Positions 1,947 through 61,745 are shown, counted from the stretch's first letter. The stretch is DNA of 61,745 nt from Minisyncoccia bacterium (GCA_041738755.1 JBGSPE010000006.1:1-61745); one strand, 5' to 3'. Numbers and translations: made by a program. The notes: generated from the sequence alone by a model not told the origin.

Positions 1947-2138
1947 TCAAACGATGTGGTCTTTTTGGAAGACGCTAGAAGAGGTCTCCCTCTCAGTCAA
2001 AGAGAGACCTTTTCCAATTTCCTCCACCTCGGCTCTATGCGTAAGCGCATCCTCATAATCAAACTTAGCAAGCAAGTCAAAGAAGCTCGCTAGCTCGGAG
2101 ATATCCTGCTTATTTAATTGTGAGTTACTGAAAGCCAT
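1947..2138 (-). CDS. Hypothetical small acidic protein
   Basis: ORF only; no clear SD; lies in a 1-kb otherwise non-coding stretch. Confidence 0.25.
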   Translation of the reverse strand: MAFSNSQLNKQDISELASFFDLLAKFDYEDALTHRAEVEEIGKGLSLTERETSSSVFQKDHIV

Positions 2139-2509
2139 ATTTGTTCACAGCAGGTGAAACAAATTTATGCTTAGGTAACAAAAAACTCGAAAGTAGAATG
2201 GAACTTAAGACACAAAGTGTCTCTGAGTTCATCTAATTTCGAGTTCTCTGACCGTTTAGCTTTTTCTTGTCGACTGGATTTCTCAATGACCAATCGGGAA
2301 AAGTGAAGCTTAAGACTGAGGTTTTCTCAAGATGAGTTTTATTTAGCTGTAATTAAATTATAGCACTTTGATGGCTTAAACTAAGGGGATAAGTGACTGC
2401 AACACAGTTCTAAATAGTTAACAAATTTAATTTCAAAAACGCCTTATTTCATTGCAGTTTTTATTTCTGATATACTTACACTCGACAACTTAATAATTGC
2501 TCACCTAAC

Positions 2510-2531
2510 CCTTGCTGTAAGTACAGCAAGG
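2510..2531. repeat. Near-perfect 22-bp palindrome CCTTGCTGTA-AG-TACAGCAAGG
   Basis: Read directly from the sequence; intergenic; likely a protein-binding site or hairpin. Confidence 0.6.
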
Positions 2532-2542
2532 TATGGTGGAAA

Positions 2543-2681
2543 AACGCGACAAATGTAAAGAACCTATCATTAGGGCGTTTGTCGCGTTACATCGGGAAAC
2601 TGGTGTAGAGGTCCTCGGATCTTCCTAGTGATAGGCTTTTTGTGTATATAGCACAACCTCACTATTTTAAACGCGACAAAC
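2543..2681 (+). promoter_or_regulatory. Three copies of an ACGCGACAAA box, a candidate operator set
   Basis: Copies are AACGCGACAAA (2543-2553), the inverted TTTGTCGCGTT (2578-2588) and AAACGCGACAAAC (2669-2681). The first two form an 11-bp inverted repeat. The third lies 3 nt before the ATG at 2684. Confidence 0.5.
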
Positions 2682-2683
2682 TT

Positions 2684-2953
2684 ATGGAAATACTACTACT
2701 AATCATTATTTGGATACTCTCTCAATGGAAGGCGATCTTGGGCTTTTTATTTGTTGTACTAATCTTTAAAATCATTACTAACGATATTGGTAATCTTCTG
2801 AAGAAAATTAACGACATTGACCGCAATGTTAAAGCAATAGCCAAGTCAATGGAAGTTTTTGGGACTGAAGAAGAAAACAAAAAAACCCCTTTGCATAAAA
2901 AAACTTTTACAGAGATTTATAAGGAGCAGAAACGAAAAGACCTAGATATCTAA
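2684..2953 (+). CDS. Hypothetical small membrane protein (N-terminal TM segments plus a charged tail)
   Basis: Hydrophobic N-terminus EILLLIIIWILSQWKAILGFLFVVLIF. I prefer the ATG at 2684 over the GTG at 2642 given in the ORF track. Confidence 0.45.
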   Translation: MEILLLIIIWILSQWKAILGFLFVVLIFKIITNDIGNLLKKINDIDRNVKAIAKSMEVFGTEEENKKTPLHKKTFTEIYKEQKRKDLDI

Positions 2954-2954
2954 C

Positions 2955-3338
2955 CTACAGTCTTTCAATAACCCTATCTGCTATTGCGTCTAAGTTGAAT
3001 CCAAATGGTGGAAAATCATACAATAAATCCTTCTCAAACTCAGTGTCTGTAGAGAAATCTTTCTTGAACTTACGCTCAAGGAGCCACGCTGTAGCTTTCC
3101 AGTCTTTCTCTCCAGCTTTTTCAATACGCTTCATAAGCTTTTGCTTATATTCGATTGCTTTTTGACCCATTTGTTCTGAAAATTCTGAATTTGTACGTTT
3201 CCAGATACACAAAGTATCCTCGGAGATCCCTGCGAGCATTGAGGCATCTCTTTGTGTCATTCCATCTCCTAGAGCGTCTAGAATGATTTTAACCCTCTCT
3301 GGGGTCATTTTATAAGGTTTGGTGACGTGTTCACTCAT
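2955..3338 (-). CDS. HTH DNA-binding protein, phage terminase-small-subunit-like / phBC6A51-type HTH
   Basis: Motif ...MLAGISEDTLCIWKRTNSEF...WLLERK. Same architecture as the ORF at 60982-61440. Confidence 0.65.
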   Translation of the reverse strand: MSEHVTKPYKMTPERVKIILDALGDGMTQRDASMLAGISEDTLCIWKRTNSEFSEQMGQKAIEYKQKLMKRIEKAGEKDWKATAWLLERKFKKDFSTDTEFEKDLLYDFPPFGFNLDAIADRVIERL

Positions 3339-3510
3339 ACTAACCAGTGGTTAATTTATAATGAACGATTTAGATTTTTTGGCTTACGTTTATTATAGCA
3401 AATGTACGTTATAAAGAAAATGACAGTTTTCTGGCAAAATACTTGACTTTTAATACAAAAAGTATAATATAGTAATATAATAATACAAAATATTGTCATA
3501 TTCATAAATT

Positions 3511-4791
3511 ATGTTAATAACAAGAATTAAAGCTAGTAATTTTTACGGAATAAAGGATCCTATCGAAGCAGTCTTCACAGAAGGTGGAGAGAAAGAGAAA
3601 ATAGGATATGTAAATAAAGGAAAAGAGAGAATATCACTTATCTCTGGTTTTTACGGATCCAATGCTTCAGGTAAAAGTACGGTATTAAACGTAATGGATA
3701 CAGTTATTAGAATAATGCTTTCTAAGCAACAAGATTACGTAACAAACCCTAATGGGATAAAGGAAGAAACGATAATTGCTTTCCCGAACTTTAGCTCTGA
3801 CTCAAAAGACAAACCTATTATCTTAGAGATTGACTTTATATTTGGTGACGATGATAACAAGTACAACTATTTGGTCTCAATTATAAATGATGGAAAAGAG
3901 ATATCAGAGGAGGTTCTATACAAGAACGGTAAGAAGATATTTAGTAGAAACGAACACAGAGTTTCTTTCGGTGAGTATATAGAAAAGAAAGTTGGTGATG
4001 TTGTGGCAAAGAATATTATCGCTCCAAAAAAATCTTCCTTCCTCTCAGTTCTTTTGGATGAGACCTCTGATATATCAGTATTTAGTAACCTTAAAACTGA
4101 AATCGGTGTTTCTGAGCTTAAGGAAATAAGAAATAAAATTTGTTTTATAACTGACAAACGGTCAGTCCAAATGGGACAAAATAACATAAACGGATTACTT
4201 GGTTTTGCAGTTAATTACCTCAATGATACTAAGACACAAGAAGAAAAACTTGGAGCTGTTAATTCTGTAGTAAAATACTTCGAGCCTTCATTTGAAAGTC
4301 TTATTATCAAAAAGGGTTCTGATGAGAATCCAATAAACAAGACTTTCTCATTCACTTACGAAGCAAAATACACCAACTTCTATAAAAATCTCGGTATGAT
4401 GGAGCTTTCGGCTGGTACGCGAGAGCTTGTTGCTTACATTAGCGATATTCTGAAGATTATAAAGAACGGCGGTATTGTAGTGTATGACGAAACGAGCAAG
4501 TACTATCATCCAGATATGGAAATTGCGATATTAAACTTATTTAAAGACAAGGATATCAACTTACACAATGCTCAAATATTCTTTTCTTCCCACAACCACG
4601 AAACTTTCGATTTATTGCAAAATAATCAAGCTCACATCCTAGAAAAGAAAGATACAGGTATAACTATAAATAAAGTGTCTGATTATGGGGTTAGGGAGAG
4701 AGACAATATAAAGAGAGTGTATCGCCTAGGTTCTCTTGGTGGTGTCCCTGATACTATCGACTTTAGTAGAATTATAAATAATTTACTTTAA
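3511..4791 (+). CDS. AAA_15/AAA_21-type ABC-like ATPase (AbiLi / AriA-like defence ATPase)
   Basis: N-terminal IKASNFYGIK. Walker A GSNASGKST. Signature-like LSAGTREL. Walker B IVVYDET. FFSSHNHE. Confidence 0.88.
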   Translation: MLITRIKASNFYGIKDPIEAVFTEGGEKEKIGYVNKGKERISLISGFYGSNASGKSTVLNVMDTVIRIMLSKQQDYVTNPNGIKEETIIAFPNFSSDSKDKPIILEIDFIFGDDDNKYNYLVSIINDGKEISEEVLYKNGKKIFSRNEHRVSFGEYIEKKVGDVVAKNIIAPKKSSFLSVLLDETSDISVFSNLKTEIGVSELKEIRNKICFITDKRSVQMGQNNINGLLGFAVNYLNDTKTQEEKLGAVNSVVKYFEPSFESLIIKKGSDENPINKTFSFTYEAKYTNFYKNLGMMELSAGTRELVAYISDILKIIKNGGIVVYDETSKYYHPDMEIAILNLFKDKDINLHNAQIFFSSHNHETFDLLQNNQAHILEKKDTGITINKVSDYGVRERDNIKRVYRLGSLGGVPDTIDFSRIINNLL

Positions 4792-4796
4792 AGCCT

Positions 4797-5372
4797 ATGG
4801 GTAACAAAAAAGGTTTTAAAGTATATTATTTACTCCTAAATGAAGGGACTACTGAGTTTAACTTATTTGCTTATCTAACTAGAAATAAATACAGAGAGCT
4901 TTTTACTGGTTCAAATATTCAATTTAGTAACAAAGTTGAAATTATAAAAGATGGTAATCAAATAATTTCACAAGGTAAATTAGATGGAGTAAGTGATATT
5001 TCTCACTTCACAGCAAAGCATATTTTAATTAAGGAAAAATATGAAAATCAAAGACTGTTTTATTTTCTTGATAAAGATATAGACGATTCTACTGCTATAG
5101 AAACCCTAGTTCTACAAGATGGCGATATTGTTCAATTTTTAGAGTACAACTCAGAACATTTACTACTTAGACTTGCAGGGAGAAGTCCTCAAAATCCAAT
5201 GGATTTTGCAAATTTAGGAGAGTTCCGAACATACTGTAAAAAAGAGTTTGTAAGTCAATTTGGGAAAAATGCTCATAAATTTAAGGATGCAGATTTTGAA
5301 TTGGTATTTAACATACCTACAGAAGAGGAAGTAAGAGCAAGTTTCAGTGAACTTTTTTCCACATTGACTTAA
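4797..5372 (+). CDS. RloB-like / Toprim-like partner protein (AbiLii / AriB-like)
   Basis: N-terminal YYLLLNEGTTEFNLFAYL resembles the RloB EGxxTE..YF motif. Starts 5 nt after the ATPase stop. Confidence 0.6.
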   Translation: MGNKKGFKVYYLLLNEGTTEFNLFAYLTRNKYRELFTGSNIQFSNKVEIIKDGNQIISQGKLDGVSDISHFTAKHILIKEKYENQRLFYFLDKDIDDSTAIETLVLQDGDIVQFLEYNSEHLLLRLAGRSPQNPMDFANLGEFRTYCKKEFVSQFGKNAHKFKDADFELVFNIPTEEEVRASFSELFSTLT

Positions 5373-39708: not shown

Positions 39709-41292
39709 ATGTTTTGGGCAGATACTATTGCAGATGAGGTAGAGCGACGCTACGCGTCGCTCCTGGCTTTGAGTGAACCACTGGTGGTCCGTGACGAAAA
39801 GACTGCTTCAGGGAAGGTTCATGTTGGATCTCTTCGGAGTGCCTCAATGCACGCCATTGTGGCAGATGTTTTAAAGAGTCGCGGACACAACGTAAAGTTC
39901 CTTTTTGAAATCAATGACTTTGACCCGATGGATGGTATTCCGAGCTATTTAGACGCAAGCGAGTATGAACAATACATGGGAGTACCGCTGTGCAATATCC
40001 CTTCACCAGTCCCGGGCTTTGCCAACTTTGCCGAGTACTATGGGCAAGAGTATGTAGCGGTTTTAAATAAAATTGGCTTTGGAGCTGAAGTGTACCGAGC
40101 CAGTGAACTCTATCGCAGTGGTGCAATGAATGACATGATTAAAAAAGCCCTCGAGCGACGAGCCTTGGTTCGTGAAATTTATTTCCATATCTCAAAGAGT
40201 GAGAAGCCAGAGGATTGGTATCCGTTTAATGTTATCTGTGAGCACTGCGGCAACCTCAGTGCTACGAAGATTACTGACTTTGATGGTGAGACCGTAGCGT
40301 ACACGTGTAGCTCAGATACTATCGCCTGGGCGAAGGGCTGTGGTCATACAGGCCGGGTGTCCCCGTACAATGGTAACGGGAAGTTCCCGTGGAAGCTCGA
40401 CTGGGCTGCTAAGTTTGTTGCTCAAAAGGTCAACTTTGAAGGGGGAGGTAAAGATCATTATACCAAGGGCGGTTCACGCCAAGTTGCTGAAGCAATTGCG
40501 CGAGAAATCTTTGATCATGAACCACCGTATGGTGTCTTTAATGAATTCTTCTTAGTTGGCGGCAAAAAGATGTCGTCTTCAAAAGGTAACGCTGCTTCAG
40601 CCGAAGAAATGACGGAAATTCTTCCACCACATATCCTCCGTCTGTTACTTCTAAAAACTCCCATCAATCGTCAACTCGACTTTGACCCAGAAGGGGATGC
40701 AATTCCAGTTCTGTTTGATACCTACGATAAACTGGCTGAAAAGTATTGGAGTGGAGTACGAGATGATGATTCGCAAGTCTTTACCTTTAGTCACTTACGA
40801 GATGAGCGGGCTGAATTTCCGGTTCGCTACCTACCACGCTTCTCACAAGTGGCATTTCTAGTGCAGATGCCTCATATGGATATCTATGATGAAGTAGCTG
40901 TTATGAAAGGTGAAGAGTTAACTGACGTTGATATCGCCGAGCTTGATGAACGAGTCGTGTATGCCAAGCGTTGGCTCAAGCACTATGCTGACGATAAGTT
41001 TATCTTTACCCTACAATCAACCATTCCAGAATTAGTAGGTTCACTTTCAGAGGCGCAACAAACAGCCCTTGCTTTATTGTCAGATAAAATTGAGTTACTT
41101 GAAACTATTGATGGACAAGTTTTACACGAACTCATTCATGATGTGAAGGAAACCTCCGGACTTACTCCGCAGGAATTCTTCAGTGCTATTTACACCGTCT
41201 TTCTCGGTAAAACCAGCGGTCCAAAGGTAGGATGGTTTTTAAGTACGCTTGATAAAGATTTCTTATTGAAGAGATTTAGAAGTGAGGAGTAA
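39709..41292 (+). CDS. lysS: Lysyl-tRNA synthetase, class I
   Basis: Class I layout. HVGSLRS (HIGH-like), KMSSSKG (KMSKS-like). 527 aa. Confidence 0.88.
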   Translation: MFWADTIADEVERRYASLLALSEPLVVRDEKTASGKVHVGSLRSASMHAIVADVLKSRGHNVKFLFEINDFDPMDGIPSYLDASEYEQYMGVPLCNIPSPVPGFANFAEYYGQEYVAVLNKIGFGAEVYRASELYRSGAMNDMIKKALERRALVREIYFHISKSEKPEDWYPFNVICEHCGNLSATKITDFDGETVAYTCSSDTIAWAKGCGHTGRVSPYNGNGKFPWKLDWAAKFVAQKVNFEGGGKDHYTKGGSRQVAEAIAREIFDHEPPYGVFNEFFLVGGKKMSSSKGNAASAEEMTEILPPHILRLLLLKTPINRQLDFDPEGDAIPVLFDTYDKLAEKYWSGVRDDDSQVFTFSHLRDERAEFPVRYLPRFSQVAFLVQMPHMDIYDEVAVMKGEELTDVDIAELDERVVYAKRWLKHYADDKFIFTLQSTIPELVGSLSEAQQTALALLSDKIELLETIDGQVLHELIHDVKETSGLTPQEFFSAIYTVFLGKTSGPKVGWFLSTLDKDFLLKRFRSEE

Positions 41293-52136: not shown

Positions 52137-52160
52137 GATACGCTCCCAAATCCACTAGTA

Positions 52161-52196
52161 AACCCTGGCCACATCATGGCCGGGGTTTTTGTTTTT
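52161..52196 (+). terminator. Rho-independent terminator
   Basis: AACCCTGGCC-acatcat-GGCCGGGGTT followed by T-runs. Confidence 0.7.
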
Positions 52197-52207
52197 GATA
52201 AATTGCT

Positions 52208-52236
52208 GTGACTCTCTGTAGTACGAATTGGAACCG
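52208..52236 (+). repeat. Cassette-boundary repeat R1: GTGAC-N16-TGGAACC
   Basis: GTGACTCTCTGTAGTACGAATTGGAACCG. Positions 52214-52236 are 23/23 identical to R2 (52544-52566). Confidence 0.8.
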
Positions 52237-52258
52237 TACAGTAATCCAGATTTATGCT

Positions 52259-52480
52259 TTAGAGGTTTTGATATTCCTCTTTTGTGATTACGTCACCTTG
52301 TTCTCCAACGCCATATCCTAAAGTGTTCCCAGTAAGAGCATCGTTGGCCCTACCCATTTCTTCTGTACCACCTTGAATTATAGTCTCAACACCGTTACTT
52401 CGTCTACGAACCTCAGATCTTTCATTATCAAAACAATAACCAATTGATCCTAAGCGTATGTATTTAATTCCCTTTGACAT
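52259..52480 (-). CDS. Hypothetical small protein
   Basis: ORF only; no SD. Confidence 0.35.
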   Translation of the reverse strand: MSKGIKYIRLGSIGYCFDNERSEVRRRSNGVETIIQGGTEEMGRANDALTGNTLGYGVGEQGDVITKEEYQNL

Positions 52481-52537
52481 ACTTCATAGTAACATTTACA
52501 GAAAGGGACTTCCGGAGAAGTACCTCCTATGTCCTCA

Positions 52538-52566
52538 GCGACCCTCTGTAGTACGAATTGGAACCG
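52538..52566 (+). repeat. Cassette-boundary repeat R2
   Basis: GCGACCCTCTGTAGTACGAATTGGAACCG. Confidence 0.8.
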
Positions 52567-52715
52567 GATCTTTGTTTATTTAAAACTGTTGGTTACTAAT
52601 CATTAATAACCATTGTATATTATTAGAATTTCTGATTTACTGGGTATCAGGTATCGTCCGTTGAAAGCTGGTAACATCACATTGCGTGGTGTCAGCAACA
52701 ACGGAGGATAAGTTC

Positions 52716-53462
52716 ATGATTGACATAGATCAATTGGATATACTTCCCACCAAAAGCGCCTTAAGGCGCCGTAAACGTCGGGAAAAACGCGCTTATCACG
52801 AGCTTCGGCTAGCAAACTATCGTCAATCATTTGCTGGCAGGAAGGCCGCCCGCGAGCGCGAACAAGCATCGGTTGCATTTCGTGCACAGGAAGAACGTCG
52901 ATTAGAACTTTTAAGGCGACGCACGCTTGCTATGGCAAGTGCGCTCGCAGTATCAGTTGTCAACTTCGAGGTGGAATTCGGTTCATACCTCACCACTGAC
53001 CTCAATCGTGCTAGGGCATACATGTTGGGGGAGACTCATCGTTGCATGCCATTGCCTCTTGAATTGAGTGTTGCGGTCGGTGACTACAGGCGGGATCTTC
53101 TGGCTCGACGACTACAAATCGAGCCCTTCATTACAGAAATTAATGCACTTACTTCTGTTCAGTATAATGAAGTGCTCGATGCCTTAGTCGGCCATTTTGA
53201 AGAATTGATGGAGGTTTCTGATGGTCTCTACAATTGCTCTGTCTGGCACCCGCTCTGCAAGAATACCAATGACCATGCCCGGTCAAGACGTATTTCTCGG
53301 CGTTCGGCCACACGCAAGTGGCAACGTAATGTTTTGAAAGTATATATCAACATTACCGGTTTATCCGCAGTTGAAGATCTCTTTAGTTACGCGTTGATTC
53401 CACAGCCGCGTTGGCTACGGCAAATAATTGCTCAATCAAAGACTGTTCGTTTGATCGCCTGA
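52716..53462 (+). CDS. Hypothetical Arg-rich protein
   Basis: The ATG at 52716 is preceded by GGAGGA (52703-52708). GC-richer than its neighbours. Confidence 0.5.
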   Translation: MIDIDQLDILPTKSALRRRKRREKRAYHELRLANYRQSFAGRKAAREREQASVAFRAQEERRLELLRRRTLAMASALAVSVVNFEVEFGSYLTTDLNRARAYMLGETHRCMPLPLELSVAVGDYRRDLLARRLQIEPFITEINALTSVQYNEVLDALVGHFEELMEVSDGLYNCSVWHPLCKNTNDHARSRRISRRSATRKWQRNVLKVYINITGLSAVEDLFSYALIPQPRWLRQIIAQSKTVRLIA

Positions 53463-53484
53463 GCCGTTGGAGGCACAGAGGCAG

Positions 53485-53519
53485 AAAGGGGTTGGCTTAG
53501 CCGACCCCTTTTCTTTTTT
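53485..53519 (+). terminator. Rho-independent terminator
   Basis: AAAGGGGTTGGC-tta-GCCGACCCCTTT followed by a T-run. Confidence 0.75.
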
Positions 53520-53527
53520 ACAAGTCT

Positions 53528-53555
53528 GTGAATCTCTGTAGTATGAATCGAAGCC
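53528..53555 (+). repeat. Cassette-boundary repeat R3 (diverged)
   Basis: GTGAATCTCTGTAGTATGAATCGAAGCC. Same register as R1 and R2, with a few substitutions. Confidence 0.65.
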
Positions 53556-53629
53556 AGATTGTAAATTTTATATAAAAAGCCCCCACATCATACAAGTGTG
53601 AGGGCTCGGAACTTATAGGTTAATCGCAA

Positions 53630-53785
53630 TTATCCTGGAGTTGCTTGAATTCTGTCTGCAATTGTGCGCAAAACTTCAGGGCGACTATCACCAAACCTTT
53701 TCTCTGCTTGCAGTTCATCGGCAAGCTCACGAAGAACTTTAACTTCCTCTTCTTTTGTTACAGGATGTGCTGCCAAGTTTCTCAT
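53630..53785 (-). CDS. Small 51-aa hypothetical protein (too short for the ORF track)
   Basis: GGAG lies 7 nt upstream of the ATG. Translation MRNLAAHPVTKEEEVKVLRELADELQAEKRFGDSRPEVLRTIADRIQATPG. Confidence 0.3.
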   Translation of the reverse strand: MRNLAAHPVTKEEEVKVLRELADELQAEKRFGDSRPEVLRTIADRIQATPG

Positions 53786-54024
53786 GTTCGATCTCCAGAA
53801 ATAGCACCAAAACTAGTACTAAAGATATATTAAATAAATTTTGTTTTAAGTCAATTTAGACGTTAATTTAAGAATACTTTATGTATTAACATCCGTATCA
53901 TGTGTTTGACCCTACAAGCAGGGGATTTCAGCAAGTTCCAGAAAATTAGTGTGACTTTACAATAGGAAAAAAATATATATAGTCACGTCAGAAAAGCATA
54001 TAAATTGGCAAAAAGGAAAATCAG

Positions 54025-54405
54025 ATGCCTTTAACTGAAGAAGAAATTGCCACAAAGTGTGTCTCACAAGAAAGACTTTTTGAGATTTTGAAAGCCGAAG
54101 GAGTAACAATAACCAAATGCAGCGTTAGCAAAAACTCAGTTGGAGAATTCTTGTTTATTCGTGCAAAATGGGAGCACAATCCTGAATTTTATATGCTTTG
54201 TACTGGGTGTGGAGATTATCACATAGGACCCTATCCCGGACTAAGTTTTTTCGGTATGGGATTTGATGAAAATGAGAACGTCTTTTTCGAGAGCGAGTGG
54301 CGTTTCCATGGCGCAACTCTGCCAGTAATTGATACCGGCATGTCTGTACCATTTGAAGAGGTCGTCCAAGAGATCGAGAAGAGAAGACCAATTTTACAGT
54401 CATGA
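54025..54405 (+). CDS. Hypothetical protein
   Basis: 126-aa ORF followed by a 12-bp-stem hairpin. Confidence 0.5.
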   Translation: MPLTEEEIATKCVSQERLFEILKAEGVTITKCSVSKNSVGEFLFIRAKWEHNPEFYMLCTGCGDYHIGPYPGLSFFGMGFDENENVFFESEWRFHGATLPVIDTGMSVPFEEVVQEIEKRRPILQS

Positions 54406-54410
54406 TCCTC

Positions 54411-54450
54411 GAAGCCAGCGAACGTTTCGCTGGCTTCATTTATATATTTT
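54411..54450 (+). terminator. Rho-independent terminator
   Basis: GAAGCCAGCGAA-cgt-TTCGCTGGCTTC followed by an AT/T-rich tail. Confidence 0.65.
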
Positions 54451-54454
54451 ACGC

Positions 54455-54482
54455 GTGACCCAAATGGGACAAAGTTGGAACC
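54455..54482 (+). repeat. Possible cassette-boundary repeat R4: the ends are conserved (GTGAC-N16-TGGAACC) but the middle differs
   Basis: GTGACCCAAATGGGACAAAGTTGGAACC. Same 16-nt spacing as R1. Confidence 0.4.
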
Positions 54483-54534
54483 AGTTGGTGAAGGAAATGA
54501 AAATGTGGGAAGAATTTGGGAGATTAACAGAAAA

Positions 54535-54873
54535 TTAAATCTGGTCTAAATCTTTTAGAATCATCTCTTCAGATTCATGAGTCTTCCACAATTCAATGTA
54601 TGAAAGGTCGTCTTTAGATAAGTGTTTACCCCCACCAAGTCCTATTAAAGATTTAGCCATTGTCCACCTTGCATAGTATTGTTCACCGCAATTTTCTATT
54701 GAAAAACGTATTACTTCAGAGACTAAATCTGGTCGTTTTTGTAGTAATTTATTTAACTCAGTCGAACAATAAATCATCTGAATTGGCATTGGCGTCATTG
54801 TTACGCCAATGCCTGAAGCCATTAATTTTAGATGGTCTAGTTTCTGTTCTATATCCAAATCAGTTTCACTCAT
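54535..54873 (-). CDS. Hypothetical protein
   Basis: 112-aa ORF; no motifs. Confidence 0.5.
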   Translation of the reverse strand: MSETDLDIEQKLDHLKLMASGIGVTMTPMPIQMIYCSTELNKLLQKRPDLVSEVIRFSIENCGEQYYARWTMAKSLIGLGGGKHLSKDDLSYIELWKTHESEEMILKDLDQI

Positions 54874-54951
54874 GGGATAAGCATAACAAAAGTTCCAAGT
54901 ATTTCCTTAGGTGTTAAAAAATTCCCATGTAAATTAACATCAAATGTCGCT

Positions 54952-54974
54952 GTGAGCCTAATCGTGATGGAACC
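54952..54974 (+). repeat. Weak cassette-boundary-like repeat R5 (GTGAG-N11-TGGAACC)
   Basis: GTGAGCCTAATCGTGATGGAACC. The spacing differs. Confidence 0.25.
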
Positions 54975-55046
54975 AAAGAAATTCATTGCCCAGTAAGGCT
55001 TTCGTAGCTATTCATTACAAAACACCCTCGACGCTTCTCGAGAGAG

Positions 55047-55406
55047 TTATTTATGCTCTGGACAGCCACCTTTTGTATATTCCTCATACTGAGCATAAGA
55101 CATCGACGCCGCTCCTTGGATGTGTTGTTCAATCAAAGCTAGGTCTTTGGGGTCAAGTTTAAGTTTGTTTGATTTTTCGTACGGACCCCACTCGTACATT
55201 TTCTCAATCAAATGAGCTATGAAATAGGACTTTTTATTATCGTATTGTTTACTCAATTCGATATTGCATGTGTGGTCGTTATCGTGTGTCAAAACAACAG
55301 CTAATGGTGCATCAGATGGTCCGTCAATAAACACAATAGGGTGCCACGCTTCTTTACGACCTCGTTCTGTACCCCATAAAATGTCTCCTCGCTTAAATTT
55401 TTTCAT
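55047..55406 (-). CDS. Possible PemK/MazF-like (SH3-fold toxin-like) protein
   Basis: N-terminus KRGDILWGTERGRKEAWHPIVFI resembles the RGDI...RP.V signature of PemK/MazF toxins. Weak assignment. Confidence 0.4.
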   Translation of the reverse strand: MKKFKRGDILWGTERGRKEAWHPIVFIDGPSDAPLAVVLTHDNDHTCNIELSKQYDNKKSYFIAHLIEKMYEWGPYEKSNKLKLDPKDLALIEQHIQGAASMSYAQYEEYTKGGCPEHK

Positions 55407-55444
55407 AATTGTATTTTACAAAAAGTGACAAAAGTGACACTTTT

Positions 55445-55924
55445 TTACCCAATTTTGTTATGACTAAAAAAGAGCTTGCCTAGTAGAAATTCAAAAACCA
55501 AAACCATTATGAAAAGTAAAGGTGACCAAAATATCGTTGCCATAGCTATAAAGAAAATAACAAAAGGAAGACCAGATATAACATCTTGATAAAGTCCTAT
55601 GCTTATATAAAACGGAACAAAAGCACTGAGGTTAATCCAAATACCCCAGTTAAGGATGTTGCCTTTTAGTCGGTTAATTACACCCTTAGACGCTTCGATA
55701 TAGATATATATGGAAATATATACCGCTACAATTATTCCCCAAACAAGTATGGTTTTGTCCTCTTGCAGGTTTTCTGTGCCGAGTGCAGATAATATGGTTG
55801 GAGTAAATAAGATAAGACCAATCAGCATTTGAAGACGTCTTTCCATTCTGGAAACATCAACAGAATCCATATAATCATTATGGAGTGATTCGAGCTTCTT
55901 ATATGTTAGTTTAATAAATTTCAT
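55445..55924 (-). CDS. Hypothetical 4-TM membrane protein (operon gene 4)
   Basis: Four hydrophobic segments. Its ATG overlaps the upstream stop (ATGA). Confidence 0.6.
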   Translation of the reverse strand: MKFIKLTYKKLESLHNDYMDSVDVSRMERRLQMLIGLILFTPTILSALGTENLQEDKTILVWGIIVAVYISIYIYIEASKGVINRLKGNILNWGIWINLSAFVPFYISIGLYQDVISGLPFVIFFIAMATIFWSPLLFIMVLVFEFLLGKLFFSHNKIG

Positions 55925-57000
55925 TTCTTTTTGGAGACTAATTTGAGCAAATCCTCCTCACGGTCATAACCATGCAGTCTACCCTCAAGCATTCCTAGTC
56001 TATAAGATACTCCATCCGTAACAAGACGCCAGTTAGTCTCTTTTAGGGCTTTTCTGAGTAAACATTCAAGCTCGTAGGTACTTGCTCGACCTTCTCGGTC
56101 TGACTTCTGCTCATAGACTATAAACGGTAAAAAGACATCTTTGGTTACATCGGGTTCTTTAAACTGGAGTTTGATATAGCCAGCTTTCTCAAGTAGTGGA
56201 ACGAGGTACTCCTCTAGTTCTAGAATCTTTAATTTCTTTAGTTTAGCGACTGCATCATAGAGGTCTTTATTTTTCTCTTTTTCTTTTATCTCATCAAACA
56301 GATGACCCATTCGCATTATTTGTTCAGTTGATCGAATGTACTCCTGTCCATCTTTTTCAGATAGACAGAACTCTTGACGGTCTTTAGCAAAATGTGGGTC
56401 TTCAACTTCTTCTGGTTTAGAACCGAAGTCAAAATCTTCAATGTTCGTGTAATCACAAGACGAACATGTTTGCTCAATAACAATCTTTTCAGTTTCTTTT
56501 TGACGTACCTCCTTTAATTCTGAGTGGCACTTTGGGCAAGTAGGTGTTTTATGTTGAAACTCTTCACCAGTGTTAAAGAACGCCCTGCGAGGGAGGTGGT
56601 CTAGCGGACAATCATAGAAAAAGAGAACGGTATCATCATCGTTCATTCCGATATTTAAATGCTTTGAGCTAACAAACATCAATCTTCCACAAGTGTGACA
56701 AGTAATGTCTTCTGGCGGTTCAGCTTCTTCTAAAAGTCTGTCTCTGGCTTCATCTGACTGGATCCAGCGTTTGATAGTTTCTTCTCGGTGAACGTAACGG
56801 TCGCCTTTGGTGTAGTAGATGTGTAGGTTTTTAGTAACCACCAAAGCACGAATCATTTCTGACTCTTCAATGTCTTTACCCTTAGCTTCTTTTCTATATT
56901 TCTCAATATCGACTTCTTCAGATAATAAACCACGACAGATTTCCACCGTCCGACGGTCATACTGGTCTTCGTAGTACTGTTTAGACTTTAAGTTGCTCAT
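55921..57000 (-). CDS. Hypothetical double zinc-ribbon protein (operon gene 3)
   Basis: CHTC...C...H and CPKC-N21-CSSC. I cannot assign the C-terminal domain. Confidence 0.6.
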   Translation of the reverse strand: MSNLKSKQYYEDQYDRRTVEICRGLLSEEVDIEKYRKEAKGKDIEESEMIRALVVTKNLHIYYTKGDRYVHREETIKRWIQSDEARDRLLEEAEPPEDITCHTCGRLMFVSSKHLNIGMNDDDTVLFFYDCPLDHLPRRAFFNTGEEFQHKTPTCPKCHSELKEVRQKETEKIVIEQTCSSCDYTNIEDFDFGSKPEEVEDPHFAKDRQEFCLSEKDGQEYIRSTEQIMRMGHLFDEIKEKEKNKDLYDAVAKLKKLKILELEEYLVPLLEKAGYIKLQFKEPDVTKDVFLPFIVYEQKSDREGRASTYELECLLRKALKETNWRLVTDGVSYRLGMLEGRLHGYDREEDLLKLVSKKK

Positions 57001-57706
57001 GTTCAGTTTTTCTTACAAACTTCTGACGTCTAATATTCTGTTCGTATCTTGCATACCATGATAGAGCGTAAAGAAAAGGCAGAAGTAATATCGATAGGTA
57101 GATTGGAAGAATGAGCTCATGGATGGTAGAGGTGCTTGCAAGCGATTCAATGTCCTCGACAGCTCTGCTGATACAGAAGATAAAAATTGCAATACCAAAC
57201 ACAATCTGTACACGGTTTAAAAATGTGTACAATATTTTGTATTCGTCTTTTGTACCCGAGAAGAACGTCAGTAGACTTAACGTGATAGCCAATGGAACAA
57301 GAATCAACTCAATCCATAAAGGAAATGTGTAAAAGTTAACAAAGAAAGCAATCAAGATTGTAATATTCAAAACTTCTCTAAAGACTTTAAACAGATATCC
57401 TTTCTCTTGGTGTAGCTTTCCAGAGTTTATGAAGGCAATTATCGACCAGCCGAATACCCAGTATATTGTCGTTTTTGTAAGGCCGGTGTTCCAAATGGAA
57501 AGCTCGTATAGAATTAATAATGTGATAGCGATGTATAGGAAAAGTAGAAAGAAAAATTTTCCTAAAGGCACTATTGATTTTAAGAATGCCCAGATGCTTG
57601 AACGAACATCTTTCTTTGTAAGAATCCATGCTGAAAAAACGGCGACCCAAAAGATGGTCGCCAGCTCTCTCGTTGTAAAAATTGTGTAAAGCAGAGACAC
57701 AGACAT
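56981..57706 (-). CDS. Hypothetical polytopic (about 7 TM) membrane protein (operon gene 2)
   Basis: Seven hydrophobic segments. Starts 5 nt after the gene 1 stop and overlaps gene 3 by 20 nt. Confidence 0.6.
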   Translation of the reverse strand: MSVSLLYTIFTTRELATIFWVAVFSAWILTKKDVRSSIWAFLKSIVPLGKFFFLLFLYIAITLLILYELSIWNTGLTKTTIYWVFGWSIIAFINSGKLHQEKGYLFKVFREVLNITILIAFFVNFYTFPLWIELILVPLAITLSLLTFFSGTKDEYKILYTFLNRVQIVFGIAIFIFCISRAVEDIESLASTSTIHELILPIYLSILLLPFLYALSWYARYEQNIRRQKFVRKTEHEQLKV

Positions 57707-57711
57707 ATCTG

Positions 57712-59190
57712 TTATTTTGCTTTACTAGCGGATTCTTTAGGTCTGCCATCAATCACAATTAATTCAGGATGTTTCGTTTCATCTTTGTCTTCTTGTTCGG
57801 CTTGTTTGATAATGTCGTCTAGTGCCTTAGAAGTATCTGTTACCTGTAAAACTACAAAGAATGCGTGTTGTGCATCCTCCGAGGTTTGGTAAATACCAGT
57901 TTGTCTCTCATAACCTTGTCGAACATTCCCACTTGTGAGTTTTACCTCAACTACAACTTTCGAAGTCCCTCGACTTAGTTTGAAGTCTACAGGTCCCTGT
58001 CCAGCATTGCTTTGTGGGCTAATATCTATATTTGAATCAGCACAGTATTTAAGAGCCATCGCATAGAAAAGAAGACAAGCATGCTCTTCATGCAGTCTAT
58101 TACCTTTACTATCGTATAGGCCACGCCAGCCACCTCGTGTTTCAATAAAACGTTTAAACGCAGAGACGATTGCACTGACAACATCGACAACCTCTGTTTC
58201 AGTAGATACTACCTTTGGAATTGTAAGCGGAATCTCTCTGACAGCTTCAGTCGATTCATCAAGCCATCGCTGTCGCCCTGCGGGGTCATTTTCAAAGTCG
58301 TAATGTTGTGGATGTGCAGATTTGTAGCCACGGAGAAGAACATCGATTCTTTCGGGATTTTCAAAGAGATAGCTTTTAATATCACCCTTAGTAGGTCTTT
58401 TTGTTCTAGCCAAAATCGGTGCAAGGATTCGGTTAAATTTTTCTCGCAACTCATCGTTGTAGGAAGCTACATCGGGAATATCTTCTGGTGTAAGTGCAAT
58501 TGGGATGTCTCGCAAAAGCGATTGAGGTACTAGCACTAGCGGCTTACTGCCAGAAGGGTGTTCTGGTAACAAAAATGTTTGTCGGGTACGGAGTGTTACT
58601 ACTTCTCGAGTACATGGAATTTTCAGTTCGACCGCTACACGTGCTGTGTAAGAATAGATACTGTCTTGGAGGATGTTAATTACTGCGTCACTAATACGGT
58701 CAGGACCAAAATCCTCTTCAAACAGTCCCATCAAATGGAATATTGCTGGGTCATTAAACCCCATTTGTAGTAGCTGTTGGGCAGATGTCACTAGTCGTCC
58801 TGCAAGTTTTTTACCAATAGCTGAACCATCATCGGTGCGAGCTCCATATCCGATTCCAACACCTCTGATTTCTCGAAGTGTCATAAGCCTTCGTGCTCGC
58901 ATTACTCCACGGACATGATTTGTTGCAATTAGAGTAATGACGTCAGCAAAGAATCTATCAAGGGTTGCTTTTGCTTCTGCAAATTCAGGAATTGTTGTTT
59001 CCTCTAAGAGTGTCGGGTCAAGAAAGAACGGTCTGTCGACTCCAATTATGGCGTTGAATGCACCAGTATTATCAAATGTGTCTTGATCAACCTTGAAATA
59101 TTCGTTTATTCGGGAAATCTGTTCGGGGTTCATGTAAATGAAGTATGAACCGATTATAAAAATATTCAAGATATTAGCCAATTTCGACAC
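57712..59190 (-). CDS. Protein with a C-terminal PD-(D/E)xK (RecB/Cas4-like) nuclease domain and an unassigned N-terminal region (operon gene 1)
   Basis: HEEH...GPVDFKL...VVVEVKL...QTGIY gives the E / D / ExK / QxxxY motifs. The GTG start is preceded by AGAGG. Confidence 0.65.
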   Translation of the reverse strand: MSKLANILNIFIIGSYFIYMNPEQISRINEYFKVDQDTFDNTGAFNAIIGVDRPFFLDPTLLEETTIPEFAEAKATLDRFFADVITLIATNHVRGVMRARRLMTLREIRGVGIGYGARTDDGSAIGKKLAGRLVTSAQQLLQMGFNDPAIFHLMGLFEEDFGPDRISDAVINILQDSIYSYTARVAVELKIPCTREVVTLRTRQTFLLPEHPSGSKPLVLVPQSLLRDIPIALTPEDIPDVASYNDELREKFNRILAPILARTKRPTKGDIKSYLFENPERIDVLLRGYKSAHPQHYDFENDPAGRQRWLDESTEAVREIPLTIPKVVSTETEVVDVVSAIVSAFKRFIETRGGWRGLYDSKGNRLHEEHACLLFYAMALKYCADSNIDISPQSNAGQGPVDFKLSRGTSKVVVEVKLTSGNVRQGYERQTGIYQTSEDAQHAFFVVLQVTDTSKALDDIIKQAEQEDKDETKHPELIVIDGRPKESASKAK

Positions 59191-59353
59191 CTAACCTCTC
59201 AATATTCCATATTCTTCCTATCGAAAACGTGTTGAAATCAACGATTTTAAACGATATCCACAGTCGCTTGGCTGAGAATTTTGCCTTATTTCATAAGGTG
59301 TTTTAGTCTGGATATACAAACGAATAACCCGAGTGGGTAACCAGCTTAAATGT

Positions 59354-59400
59354 GGGCTCACGCACAAACCAACCATTGTTGGCGTGCGTGAGCCCTTTTT
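59354..59400 (+). terminator. Strong plus-strand intrinsic terminator / attenuator hairpin
   Basis: GGGCTCACGCAC (59354-59365) pairs with GTGCGTGAGCCC (59384-59395). There is an inner CCAAC/GTTGG stem, then TTTTT. It lies 29 nt upstream of the ATG at 59430. Confidence 0.7.
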
Positions 59401-59429
59401 CGTTTGTTTAATCAAATAAGCAAATAATC

Positions 59430-59711
59430 ATGAAAAACCAAAAGATTAGAGACCATTTCTTTGCACACACACAAGAAGTCATCGAATACTACGCAGACAT
59501 CAAGACTAAGGAGGTTAGTCCTGAAGAGAAAGAAGCTCTAAAGGCACTACTCATCGACCACGCAACCTCATGTCTCTTTTCGCTCCTCGTATACATCGAT
59601 GGCGATGCGGAAGGAAAGAACATCGAAATCGTTAACGTCAAAACTAACAAACCAATTGCCGAGGACATTCTCCACGAATGCTACACAAATTATCTACTCT
59701 CAATTAAATAA
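59430..59711 (+). CDS. Hypothetical protein
   Basis: 93-aa ORF immediately upstream of the ParB-MTase gene. Confidence 0.5.
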   Translation: MKNQKIRDHFFAHTQEVIEYYADIKTKEVSPEEKEALKALLIDHATSCLFSLLVYIDGDAEGKNIEIVNVKTNKPIAEDILHECYTNYLLSIK

Positions 59712-59714
59712 CCT

Positions 59715-60998
59715 ATGAACAACATACAACTCATATGGCACACCGAGTCTCGAAAAGTAGACTCACTCCTGCCACACAAGAAATCACCACGAAAGATTAG
59801 CAAAGAGCAAGCCGAGCGTTTGAAGAAAAGCTTGGAGAACTACGGCTTGGTAGAAATCGCAGCGATAGACCTAGACGGAACAATCCTCGCAGGACACCAA
59901 AGAATGAAAGCTCTCCAACTCATGGGACAAGGAGACACGATGGTGGACGTCCGAGTACCCAACCGCAAACTCACTGATGAAGAAGCAGAGCGATACATGA
60001 TTGGAAGCAACGCCATTCACGGCGAGTGGGACTTTGACCTCCTCAAGGGTTTTGAGATGGATTTGCTCATAGATCTAGGCTTTGACCAGAAAGAGCTAGA
60101 CGACATCTGGAACAAAGAGCTGAAGAAAGAGTTTGATGTTGAGAAGGAACTAAAGGAAATCAAGAAAGCCAAGACCAAACTCGGAGACATCATTCATCTT
60201 GGTGACAACCGACTTATCTGTGGCGACTCCACCAAGGCAGAAACTCTCGAACGACTCTTCGGCGATGAACGTGCGTCTATGATTATGAGTGACCCGATCT
60301 ATAACATTTCCATTGACTACAACAAGGGCATTGGTGGAAAGCAGTCATACGGAGGTATGGTAAACGACAGCAAGACCGACGAGGAATACAAGACCTTCCT
60401 TAAGTCGAGCATGGAAGCCGCCCTCACCGTCACTAAACCCGATGCTCACGTCTTCTACTGGTCAGACGAAACATACATCTGGCTGATTCAAACCTTATAC
60501 CGTGAATTCGGTATCACCAATAAGCGAGTCTGCTTGTGGCTCAAGAACAGCCAGAATCCTGTTCCGAGCGTAGCGTTCAATAAGTGCTATGAGCCGTGTA
60601 CCTATGGTGTCCGTGGTAATCCGCAACTGGTGAAAGGTGTGACGAAGCTGAACGAAGTCCTTAATGCAGATATGACTACAGGTAACGAACTCCTCCAACA
60701 AGTCCACGACCTATTCACGGTCTGGCCTGAACCTCGTTTGTCTTCTAAAGACTACGAACACTCAACGATGAAACCACCAGCGTTATACGAGAAAGCGATA
60801 CGTCGCTGTTCTAAAGCGGGAGACATCATCCTTGATAGCTTCAACGGCTCAGGGAGCAATCTCATCGCTGCTCAAAGACTGGGCCGTCGAGTGTATGTCG
60901 TCGAGATAGAACCAAAGTTCTGTGACCTCACCATTAAACGCTTTGAAGCCGAAACAGGTCTCAAAGCCAAGGTAATAAGAAATGAAAAAGAAGTATAA
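59715..60998 (+). CDS. ParB-like nuclease domain fused to a beta-class N6-adenine/N4-cytosine DNA methyltransferase
   Basis: ParB-N motif DGTILAGHQRMKAL. MTase motif IV SDPIYN. AdoMet motif DSFNGSGSNLIAAQRLGR. Confidence 0.88.
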   Translation: MNNIQLIWHTESRKVDSLLPHKKSPRKISKEQAERLKKSLENYGLVEIAAIDLDGTILAGHQRMKALQLMGQGDTMVDVRVPNRKLTDEEAERYMIGSNAIHGEWDFDLLKGFEMDLLIDLGFDQKELDDIWNKELKKEFDVEKELKEIKKAKTKLGDIIHLGDNRLICGDSTKAETLERLFGDERASMIMSDPIYNISIDYNKGIGGKQSYGGMVNDSKTDEEYKTFLKSSMEAALTVTKPDAHVFYWSDETYIWLIQTLYREFGITNKRVCLWLKNSQNPVPSVAFNKCYEPCTYGVRGNPQLVKGVTKLNEVLNADMTTGNELLQQVHDLFTVWPEPRLSSKDYEHSTMKPPALYEKAIRRCSKAGDIILDSFNGSGSNLIAAQRLGRRVYVVEIEPKFCDLTIKRFEAETGLKAKVIRNEKEV

Positions 60999-61440
60999 AG
61001 AAGACAAATTTCTTGAACAACTGGAACGAGTGCCGAACGTATCGCTCGCTTGCGAAAAGGTCGGGCTTTCTCGAAACACCGTCTACCGATGGTGTATCGA
61101 GGATGCCGACTTTAAAGTGAGAATGGACATGGCACTTGAATCAGGGGTTCATTCCATAAGTGACCTTGCTGAGAGCAAGCTGATTTCCCATATCAATGGT
61201 GGCAACCTGCGAGCAATACAATACTGGCTTGATAACAACAAGAAAAACTACATCAGACCAAGAGACAAGAATATGTGGCAACCGTTTGTACCTGTGACCA
61301 AGATTGAGATTGTGGGGTTTGAGGGATTTACTGCAAAAAAGATAGAGGAGGAAGAACCTCATGTTCCAGAGGAGTTTATGAAGATAGATGAAAAACTTCT
61401 AAACGAACCACTTCCCGAACCGATTGAGAAACTCAAATAA
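60982..61440 (+). CDS. HTH DNA-binding protein, terminase-small-subunit-like (paralogous in architecture to 2955-3338)
   Basis: ACEKVGLSRNTVYRWCIEDADF...YWLDNNKKNY. Confidence 0.6.
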   Translation: MKKKYKEDKFLEQLERVPNVSLACEKVGLSRNTVYRWCIEDADFKVRMDMALESGVHSISDLAESKLISHINGGNLRAIQYWLDNNKKNYIRPRDKNMWQPFVPVTKIEIVGFEGFTAKKIEEEEPHVPEEFMKIDEKLLNEPLPEPIEKLK

Positions 61441-61732
61441 AAATGCGTTGTCCAATCTCTGCGACATCCTCAAGAAATAACTGCTTGTTCTTCTTCATGC
61501 GGTAACTATTGGGATGACCAATTGAAAAGACTTTGCTGTATTCTGGAAACGCTAAACGAAAGAGTGATTCCGTATTCTTTCCAATACAGAATATGGGCGT
61601 TGTGAGGGTAATTCCCAAAATAGCGAACTGCTCTTTAAGATTCTGAATATGCAAACCTCGGAAGCTTTCATCTTTCCACTTTTCAACCACTACCTTGGCA
61701 CTCGGCTCACCAATTGAAATCAGGTCAGTCAT
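61433..61732 (-). CDS. Hypothetical protein (possibly N-terminally incomplete at the window edge)
   Basis: ORF only. Confidence 0.35.
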   Translation of the reverse strand: MTDLISIGEPSAKVVVEKWKDESFRGLHIQNLKEQFAILGITLTTPIFCIGKNTESLFRLAFPEYSKVFSIGHPNSYRMKKNKQLFLEDVAEIGQRIFI

Positions 61733-61745
61733 GTATGCACCAAGA

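Follow-up and report, generated by a model that had tools for sequence, protein, structure and literature searches.

Fixed slots that are bounded by conserved genes and hold differing anti-phage systems have been described in P2-like prophages and P4-like satellites (Rousset et al. 2022, PMC9122126). The subject of the present study is a locus of comparable organization near one end of a 61,745-nucleotide stretch of DNA from a Minisyncoccia bacterium (GCA_041738755.1 JBGSPE010000006.1:1-61745; this whole stretch is referred to below as the window), where five genes, designated g1 to g5, lie between positions 55047 and 59190. As in the P2/P4 hotspots, a phage-derived integrative element carries swapped defense cargo between conserved bounding genes, and the uncharacterized occupants of the slot are candidate systems. 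The backbone of the element differs, however, being unrelated to that of P2 or P4 (a large serine recombinase, a small-terminase-like (terS-like) helix-turn-helix (HTH) protein, a ParB-methyltransferase fusion, and the flanking gene g5), the host belongs to the candidate phyla radiation (CPR)/Patescibacteria, and there are no capsid or tail genes, with a large-terminase-like (terL-like) gene in some copies; it should also be noted that the present hotspot has been recognized from sequence. The hotspot concept is known from P2 and P4, whereas the backbone, the host clade, and the occupants are new, and a literature search found nothing on defense hotspots of CPR bacteria. The defense hotspot described here is genuine and previously undescribed, and its cargo consists of two or more uncharacterized candidate defense modules. 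The locus is probably the variable defense-cargo slot of a small phage-derived CPR element, holding g1 and the block g2-g3-g4 as separate units, with g5 as a flanking gene.

Among described defense proteins, Shedu provides a plausible working analogy for g1, in that both consist of one polypeptide whose variable N-terminal part is followed by a PD-(D/E)xK nuclease at the C terminus, and both are found in defense islands. An initial annotation of the locus had suggested that g1 might itself be Shedu-like, but g1 matches neither DUF4263 (PF14082) nor SduA, and the same models do find SduA beside g3 elsewhere (2e-112); in addition, g1 differs from Shedu in its N-terminal fold and in carrying a QxxxY motif. 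The best matches of the nuclease domain, although weak, are with Can2/Card1, Cdn1, and LmuA/Cap4-type nucleases (E = 0.015 for Can2, 0.027 for Cdn1, and 1.5e-3 for the C terminus of LmuA), whose ligand- or partner-gated nuclease logic g1 may share, but g1 has no CARF, SAVED, or SMC-associated domain, the slot contains no cyclase or signaling partner, and full-length TM-scores are <0.2. By analogy, g1 could act on its own as a sensor-nuclease, in the manner of Shedu or the ligand-gated nucleases, while being a member of neither group.

A further likeness is with protein A of the PADLOC candidate system PDC-M36 (PDC-M36A), whose model is matched by the N-terminal ∼200 residues of g1 and its relatives with E values from 1e-8 to 1e-25. 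However, residues 26-232 of g1 match profile positions 6-216 of 457 only, and the match is likewise partial in six diverse relatives (profile positions ∼6-225 of 457), which places g1 in a sister family rather than in PDC-M36A itself. The C-terminal nuclease half of g1 also differs from PDC-M36, no PDC-M36 partner is present among g2, g3, g4, and g5, which have no PADLOC match at E ≤ 0.1, and true PDC-M36A-like proteins (1e-45) are encoded at other loci by genes of their own. The initial view that no named defense system fits the locus is upheld, in that searches of Pfam, PADLOC, PHROG, and NCBIfam assigned none of the five proteins to such a system.

The Cargo Slot and Its Element

The five genes had been placed on the same strand in an AT-rich accessory region. 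All were confirmed as minus-strand open reading frames (ORFs) with matching coordinates, the packing of the first four is as originally described (a 5-nt gap between g1 and g2, a 20-nt overlap of g2 and g3, and a 4-nt ATGA overlap of g3 and g4), and g4 and g5 are separated by a gap of 38 nt. The GC content is 0.37-0.43 over 55-59 kb as compared with ∼0.44-0.49 across most of the window, the remainder of which is bacterial chromosome encoding class I lysyl-tRNA synthetase (LysRS), MraW, FtsI, and a Mur ligase. Since all five have conserved homologues, g1-g5 are real genes; the block was found to be identical in two further assemblies of the same strain, which include the copies of g1 in L140 and L141 (numbers of this form designate related loci), and no near-identical DNA was found when the region was compared by megablast with collections of phage, plasmid, and E. 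coli sequences. The genes, together with the flanks and the adjoining backbone, are the following.

g1, 57712-59190, minus strand: 492 amino acids from GTG; 57712-59133, 473 amino acids from ATG at 59133.
Promoter-like site, 59153-59181, minus strand: TTGGCT-17-TATAAT, 10/12 consensus matches; upstream of the g1 ATG, inside the GTG extension.
g2, 56981-57706, minus strand: 241 amino acids; polytopic membrane protein with ∼6-7 transmembrane segments; cargo.
g3, 55921-57000, minus strand: 359 amino acids; N-terminal helical domain, two Zn ribbons, long helix, C-terminal α/β domain.
g4, 55445-55924, minus strand: 159 amino acids; small membrane protein with 4-5 transmembrane segments; cargo.
g4-g5 spacer, 55407-55444, minus strand: part of the conserved flank; promoter-like site at 55413-55440, 9/12.
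g5, 55047-55406, minus strand: 119 amino acids; conserved terminal (flank) gene of the cargo slot.
Left flank downstream of g5, 54945-55046, minus strand: conserved; terminator-like hairpin at 55025-55044.
o93, 59430-59711, plus strand: small backbone ORF, divergent from the cargo, weakly conserved.
ParB-N + N6/N4 DNA methyltransferase fusion, 59715-60998, plus strand: backbone, right flank of the slot.
Small-terminase-like HTH protein, 60982-61440, plus strand: backbone; HTH_Tnp_1_2 8e-6, phrog_4044 terminase small subunit 4e-10.
o99, 61433-61732, minus strand: 99-amino acid backbone ORF; 88% identical to L120 3783-4079; no Pfam match.

The limits of the slot are seen in a comparison of the window with the sibling locus L120, in which DNA homology is confined to 54945-55445 (91%) and 59726-61742 (78%), with nothing between. 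On the left, the junction coincides precisely with the final base of the g4 stop codon (55445), and the far end of this homology stops at 54945. Because the DNA-level homology of the flank includes g5, this gene lies outside the cargo, and the swappable slot would thus extend over ∼55446-59430, between the methyltransferase/o93 and g5. Backbone and g5 are found together in nine loci representing seven distinct slot states (ORFs in related loci were called by a simple longest-ORF heuristic); the alternatives to the state in the window are listed here.

L120: IetA (1e-40) and IetS (8e-64).
L123/L126: HamA and HamB (HamB 8e-69), Hachiman.
L134: CD-NTase (9e-119), Cap15 (6.6e-24), and a 248-amino acid ORF; a cyclic oligonucleotide-based anti-phage signaling system (CBASS).
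L131: caspase-like Peptidase_C14, ThsB-type TIR, and a protein with three transmembrane segments.
L125: histidine phosphatase.
L127: single 103-amino acid ORF, nearly empty.

Four of the six alternative states therefore contain recognized defense systems (ietAS, Hachiman, CBASS, and the caspase-like protein with ThsB-TIR). Conserved flanks surround a variable segment and this segment is enriched in recognized defense systems, which are the features that define a hotspot. Since the slot holds known anti-phage systems in sibling elements, the genes that occupy it in the window are good leads for new defense functions. The contents in this case appear to be at least two independent units, g1 and g2-g3-g4.

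The end of the window appears to lie inside a small satellite-like integrative element of a Patescibacteria/CPR bacterium. Its backbone would consist of a large serine recombinase (beyond the end of the window), a terL-like ATPase in some copies, the terS-like HTH protein, the ParB-methyltransferase, and a small ORF, and the cargo operon would be divergent from this backbone and end at the conserved g5. In relatives, the annotated backbone functions are serine recombinase, Terminase_6C, and S24 repressor. L134 represents a complete element of ∼9.6 kb, with no capsid, portal, or tail genes and with host genes (YceG) beyond g5, which suggests that the element is satellite-like; the alternative of a full prophage was rejected because this complete sibling lacks capsid, portal, and tail genes. 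Also rejected was a circular contig in which the recombinase encoded at 20-1588 would be that of the backbone, since this gene is on the wrong strand and its product shares no more than 26-32% identity with the recombinases of the backbone. The methyltransferase matches Pfam N6_N4_Mtase (1.5e-25), phrog_498, and ParB-like phrogs and is 84% identical to the L120 protein, while o93 is 35% identical to a 142-amino acid gene product at the same place in L120 and 32% identical to that of a gene upstream of g1 in L007. The match of o99 to a 171-amino acid gene product in L120 is confined to the C-terminal 99 residues of the latter, and o99 is either truncated or has its start hidden near the end of the window.

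Gene 1, a Candidate Sensor-Nuclease

The g1 family has >130 relatives. Searches with g1 of NCBIfam and of a copy of Pfam that predates the DUF8370 and DUF8371 models gave no match, but g1 matches phrog_30194 across its full length (2e-82), and both DUF8370 (PF28123) and DUF8371 (PF28130) are recorded for the identical 473-amino acid product (L140/L141) as well as for all 120 homologues listed. A literature search found no paper that mentions DUF8370, DUF8371, PDC-M36, PF28123, or PF28130.

A restriction-endonuclease-fold signature had been recognized in the C-terminal part of g1, and this was corroborated by an alignment of 36 sequences, extending down to 27% identity, in which the E-D-ExK-QxxxY residues are invariant (Glu368, Asp402-Phe-Lys404, Glu415-x-Lys417, Gln430, and Tyr434); several Asp and Gly positions in the N-terminal part and a C-terminal Ser-Ala-Ser tail are likewise invariant. 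In an AlphaFold (AF2) model, which shows a fold of two parts with good confidence (pLDDT 84, pTM 0.83), the C terminus forms an α-β-β-β-α-β core (helix 368-382, strands 389-392, 403-407, and 410-418, helix 423-437, strand 442-449), so that the prediction of a nuclease fold also withstands examination at the level of modeled structure. Comparison of the model with the PDB and BFVD by Foldseek revealed no close match, but there are weak local matches (E ≥ 0.002), nearly all of them to PD-(D/E)xK proteins: Can2, Cdn1, Hjc, the R2 RLE domain, Kpn2I, XPF, and a phage "restriction endonuclease." Sequence and profile searches of the PDB with g1 found nothing significant. The C terminus thus has the catalytic signature, as judged from the alignment, and the core fold, as judged from the model, that are expected for the PD-(D/E)xK superfamily.

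It is most likely that translation of g1 begins at the ATG at 59133 to give a product of 473 residues. Most homologues start at the equivalent position, the gene caller of the collection chose the same start, residues 1-23 of the 492-residue form are disordered in the model, and the GTG extension contains the promoter-like site at 59153-59181. The Shine-Dalgarno-like AGAGG proposed for the GTG start is indeed present before the GTG at 59190 and leaves some doubt about the ATG, although the latter is the more likely start. With this start, the hydrophobic N-terminal segment that had been attributed to g1, which falls short of the threshold for a transmembrane segment, is probably not in the protein.

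In the mechanism that we favor, the N-terminal ∼350 residues of g1 (DUF8370 and a helical linker) would sense an infection cue or a feature of DNA, and sensing would license cleavage of invading or host DNA by the C-terminal nuclease, which would result in either direct restriction or abortive infection. The distribution of the gene is that of a widespread, stand-alone, and independently mobile protein, since g1 is found by itself in ∼30 other contexts, often beside putative prophage integrases. None of g2-g5 is near the homologues with 80, 62, and 52% identity (L001, L002, and L004), whose neighbors are a type IIG-like methyltransferase or MmeI with T5orf172 and a resolvase; proteins of 237 and 241 residues adjacent to the 62% homologue were tested as possible relatives of g2 and proved to be unrelated. 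The neighbors of g1 in 25 viral contigs from IMG/VR are unrelated from locus to locus, but g1 often abuts putative tyrosine integrases (viral clusters c2 and c11, identified by sequence and without a profile test). A position beside the integrase at a prophage end is a classic cargo site.

The closest relative, L005, is the sole repeat of g1-g2-g3-g4 outside the strain of the window, and the identities there form a mosaic (90% for g1 but 56% for g2 and 67% for g3) that points to separate histories. In L007, a gene with 84% identity to g1 is directly followed by g4, with neither g2 nor g3 present.

Gene 3 and the Membrane Proteins

There are >160 full-length relatives of g3, at least 265 GTDB species genomes encode one, and nearly all of these are Patescibacteria; no Pfam domain is on record for g3. 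The zinc sites predicted for g3 are strongly supported by the family alignment, in which both sets of ligands are invariant: Cys101, Cys104, Cys131, and a His or Cys at position 135 in the first site, and Cys155, Cys158, Cys179, and Cys182 in the second. Many polar residues of the N- and C-terminal domains are invariant also. The structural model (pLDDT 87) has a four-helix N-terminal domain, two Zn ribbons, a long helix, and a C-terminal α/β domain, which bears a weak resemblance to ribosomal S24e/uL23, while one of the Zn ribbons weakly resembles NrdR. No enzyme or effector fold was recognized by Foldseek comparison of the model with the PDB or by sequence and profile searches of the PDB, and nothing significant was found. 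The g3 product is probably nucleic acid-binding.

The predictions of about seven transmembrane helices in g2 and four in g4 agree well with the ∼6-7 hydrophobic segments and the 4-5 transmembrane segments, respectively, that were counted here. Homologues of g2 were found only in L005/L006 (56%) and L008/L009 (49%), and searches of Pfam, PADLOC, PHROG, and NCBIfam gave no family match; the g4 family comprises 37 representative clusters, and its members were found beside g3 in no loci other than the window, L005, and L008, and beside g1 in L007. The g2-g3-g4 block is co-inherited in three diverged lineages (the window, L005, and L008) with its overlaps conserved, and in L008 it lies beside the same methyltransferase/terS pair in the absence of g1 (g2 49%, g3 68%, and g4 49%). 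The double-Zn-ribbon protein g3 would be translationally coupled to the two polytopic membrane proteins and may function as a sensor or regulator, with g2 and g4 as effectors that compromise the membrane. We infer, with less confidence than for g1, that g3 is a nucleic acid-binding sensor or regulator that acts through membrane proteins.

The neighborhoods of g3 were surveyed by clustering of ORFs in 80 species-level loci, and g3 was seen to reside in defense islands, among hypervariable neighbors, across at least 80 species. In a recurrent layout, one strand carries a large serine recombinase gene, sometimes a Terminase_6C large-terminase gene, a terS-like HTH gene, and the ParB-methyltransferase gene, and the opposite strand carries 0-5 variable genes, then g3, and then further variable genes. 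The methyltransferase is divergent and upstream of g3 in 42-45 of the 80 loci, all of them lacking g1, the terS-like gene follows the methyltransferase in 34-36, and g3 directly abuts the methyltransferase in nine. In about one-half of the g3 loci, there is no backbone within 6-8 kb, and g3 follows restriction-modification (R-M), KAP-NTPase, Shedu, or other systems. Of 55 same-strand genes upstream of g3, 46 are within 60 nt and 13 overlap g3, yet they belong to 48 different clusters; short gaps and overlaps are therefore usual around g3 with unrelated neighbors and do not imply that the genes form one system.

Immediate neighbors of g3 have PADLOC matches to QatA, SduA (2e-112), PDC-S11 (9e-128), PDC-S18, and PDC-S20, and further defense matches beside g3 are to a type IV restriction endonuclease (mREase_IV), AbiEii, a Type III methyltransferase, a reverse transcriptase, and PDC-M36A; type I R-M genes and a KAP-NTPase/ResIII cluster are also nearby. 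Proteins with a DUF8370 domain are encoded upstream of g3 in 7 of 83 loci, which makes them the commonest single neighbor but one that is far from obligatory, and this arrangement may reflect either chance co-residence in a hotspot or a functional link. In two loci from distant species (L064, 6520-7998, and L034, 6415-7953), the distance between g3 and the end of a preceding gene for a PDC-M36A-like or g1-like protein with the DUF8370 N-terminal domain is 2-60 nt.

Genes for small proteins with three or more transmembrane segments are enriched at position +1 relative to g3 (9 of 64, against a background of 30 of 798; p = 0.0014), but it should be recognized that ORF calling for this comparison was crude and that the loci are not phylogenetically independent. 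A family of 132-residue proteins with three transmembrane segments (g3-locus cluster c11; L015 3326-3724, L036 9062-9460, L050 9056-9466, and L056 9068-9463) is encoded by the gene that immediately follows g3 in four species and by one no more than two genes away in two others; it occupies the same position as g4 but has no detectable relation to it. A separate observation is that type I R-M genes (HsdR/HsdS/HsdM-like clusters, together with a YgjP-like metallopeptidase) are often situated just outside or upstream of the elements and g3 (L134 17-757; L016, L061, L064, L076, and L088), and the elements may enter larger defense islands or serve as nuclei for them.

Gene 5, a Flanking Gene

The g5 product has ∼20 relatives, all from CPR bacteria and without domain assignment, in which Gly7, Asp8, His22, Pro23, Cys47, Asn48, His65, Cys115, and His118 are invariant; Cys47, His65, Cys115, and His118 may bind Zn, as judged from their conservation. 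The earlier description of g5 as MazF/PemK-like reflects a short N-terminal motif, the KRGDILW...HPIVF start being similar to the RGD...RPxLV start of MazF/Kid, but the invariant Cys and His residues of g5 are absent from MazF and profile tests lend no support to the relationship. No match to Pfam (including PemK) or PADLOC was found, phmmer and hmmsearch searches of the PDB did not detect MazF or Kid even at E = 10, and hhalign comparison with an alignment of MazF, Kid, and EndoA, for which the reference MazF sequences were entered by hand, gave a probability of 0.8%. There is no antitoxin-sized partner upstream of g5, the gene in that position being that for g4, IetS, HamB, the 248-residue ORF, or another, depending on the cargo.

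In our reading, g5 is part of neither cargo unit but a conserved gene that flanks the slot and has a spacer of its own upstream. This spacer measures 37-49 nt with every type of cargo, and g5 is located downstream of unrelated cargo in L120, L123, L125, L127, L131, and L134.

Alternative Explanations

The initial annotation presented the locus as a candidate uncharacterized defense system formed by five tightly coupled genes. The location in a defense hotspot accords with the first part of this proposal but the view that the five genes act as one co-translated system, in which a nuclease effector, a Zn-ribbon sensor, two membrane anchors, and a MazF-like toxin are combined, is extremely improbable. 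Although the genes share a strand, are separated by short gaps or overlaps, and recur as an identical block in two further assemblies, the full set is present in none of the ∼80 g3-anchored, 30 g1-anchored, and 15 g5-anchored loci from other genomes, g5 is missing from every g1- and g3-anchored locus, g1-g4 are missing from the other g5 loci, and every sub-combination exists on its own. In other genomes, at most g1-g4 recur together, in L005, and the complete set of five is confined to the strain itself; tight spacing is found equally with unrelated genes here, and the flank homology puts g5 outside the cargo. A second proposal, that g1 is the restriction partner of the divergent methyltransferase at 59715-60998 in a Type II R-M system, is suggested by the juxtaposition of a PD-(D/E)xK nuclease and an N6/N4 methyltransferase and by the presence of g1 homologues near other methyltransferases in L001 and L004. 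However, this methyltransferase is ParB-fused and of a phage type (phrog_498), forms part of the backbone, together with the terS-like gene, in 42-45 loci from which g1 is absent, and accompanies ietAS in L120 and Hachiman in L123, while no homologue of it is present in the 25 viral g1 loci and g1 also occurs without it in L002-L004. In addition, the g1 proteins of the window and L005 share 90% identity, but the identity of the methyltransferase follows that of the backbone. Co-inheritance of the two is therefore not observed, each being found without the other, and we regard an R-M pair as very improbable. It is also quite improbable that g1 is a nuclease of phage or element DNA metabolism that functions in recombination, replication, or packaging. 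The family does constitute a PHROG (phrog_30194, 2e-82) with members in 25 viral contigs, and the RecB/Cas4-type QxxxY motif is typical of recombination nucleases also, but g1 is located at prophage ends by putative integrases, or in islands with MmeI and T5orf172, and outside replication and recombination modules; it is sporadic and stand-alone in chromosomes, lies here in a slot that otherwise holds defense systems, and has an N-terminal domain in common with a PADLOC defense candidate.

The main rival explanation for g3, with or without g2 and g4, is a role in maintenance or regulation of the element or in superinfection exclusion, as a semi-core gene that flanks the insertion point in the manner of g5. 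This is a serious possibility, if on balance a doubtful one. It would account for the very high conservation of g3, for its position divergent from the methyltransferase-terS backbone in 29 of 57 loci and abutting the methyltransferase in nine, with variable genes on both sides, and for the lack of a recognized enzymatic or effector fold. On the other hand, sibling elements of the g5 type lack g3, which indicates that it is dispensable for the element, about one-half of g3 loci have no backbone within 6-8 kb and have g3 after R-M, KAP-NTPase, Shedu, and similar systems, and small membrane protein genes are enriched at position +1. A joint reading, which is unlikely as a whole, makes g3 a new CPR-specific defense component (in at least 265 species) and g1 the representative of a new family of single-protein sensor-nucleases with a sensor of novel fold. 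In one version, g3 would be the sensor core of a novel abortive-infection system and would act via small polytopic membrane proteins, g2 and g4 in the window and the g3-locus c11 family elsewhere; in the other, g3 would be an accessory factor that is co-transcribed with and serves many different upstream effectors, among them nucleases of the g1 and PDC-M36A types, KAP NTPases, Shedu, and R-M systems.

Several considerations weigh against the reading that we prefer, a variable defense-cargo slot with g1 and g2-g3-g4 as separate units. The defensive role, like the other functions proposed here, is deduced from location, domains, and conservation, and the histidine phosphatase in L125 indicates that not all cargo is obviously defensive. 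The ∼350 N-terminal residues of g1 have no sequence or structural analogue in the PDB by sequence, profile, or Foldseek searches, so that the sensor role is conjecture. The mean column identity of the g3 family is unusually high (57%), and the divergent methyltransferase-terS backbone accompanies g3 in 29 of the 57 loci that have at least 6 kb of upstream sequence; strong conservation combined with linkage to the backbone in about one-half of the loci means that g3 could be an element-maintenance or regulatory gene. Hidden Markov models of the g2 and g4 families found no relatives in the 80 species-level g3 loci, so that the three-gene module may represent synteny within a lineage. It should also be noted that the defense-model screen used PADLOC-DB dated 2023 and covers systems known by then, and that the promoter and terminator calls are consensus matches, from which the signals of the host may differ.

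Other Features of the Window

The class I LysRS gene is at 39709-41292 (tRNA-synt_1f, 6e-89). Class I enzymes are the minority type of LysRS among bacteria, and the presence of one fits an unusual, CPR-like lineage. A second island of low GC content (0.32-0.39) is located at the opposite end of the window, at 20-5372, and the region at 52137-54945, between the g5 flank and host-like genes, contains small ORFs only, without relatives in sibling elements. The features of these two regions are as follows.

Large serine recombinase, 20-1588, minus strand: Resolvase + Recombinase + Zn_ribbon_recom.
AAA_21 ATPase, 3511-4791: tightly coupled to a 191-amino acid ORF at 4797-5372.
o258, 52686-53462: small ORF left of the g5 flank.
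o126, 54025-54405: weak match to an Arg_repressor-type winged helix.
o112, 54535-54873: small ORF left of the g5 flank.

The AAA_21 ATPase and the 191-residue ORF may be another small defense or toxin-antitoxin-type pair in a separate integrative element, and 52137-54945 may be either a second variable region or the end of the element described here.

Implications for CPR Bacteria

Variable slots of prophages and satellites are among the most productive sources of new anti-phage systems, and to our knowledge no such slot has been described for Patescibacteria/CPR bacteria, which are tiny episymbionts with poorly known immunity. The locus also provides a caution for the interpretation of compact genomes, in which genes should not be assigned to one system on the ground that they overlap and share a direction. 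Two protein families emerge from it: the g1-type DUF8370/DUF8371 nuclease, which is spread over CPR bacteria, Proteobacteria, Planctomycetes, and phages, and the g3 family, which centers on a Zn-ribbon protein without a relative in any domain or defense database. The slot is cleanly delimited, so that its ParB-methyltransferase and g5 flanks are usable as search handles across metagenomes, and g1 and g3 are two concrete candidates that are short enough for direct heterologous testing.

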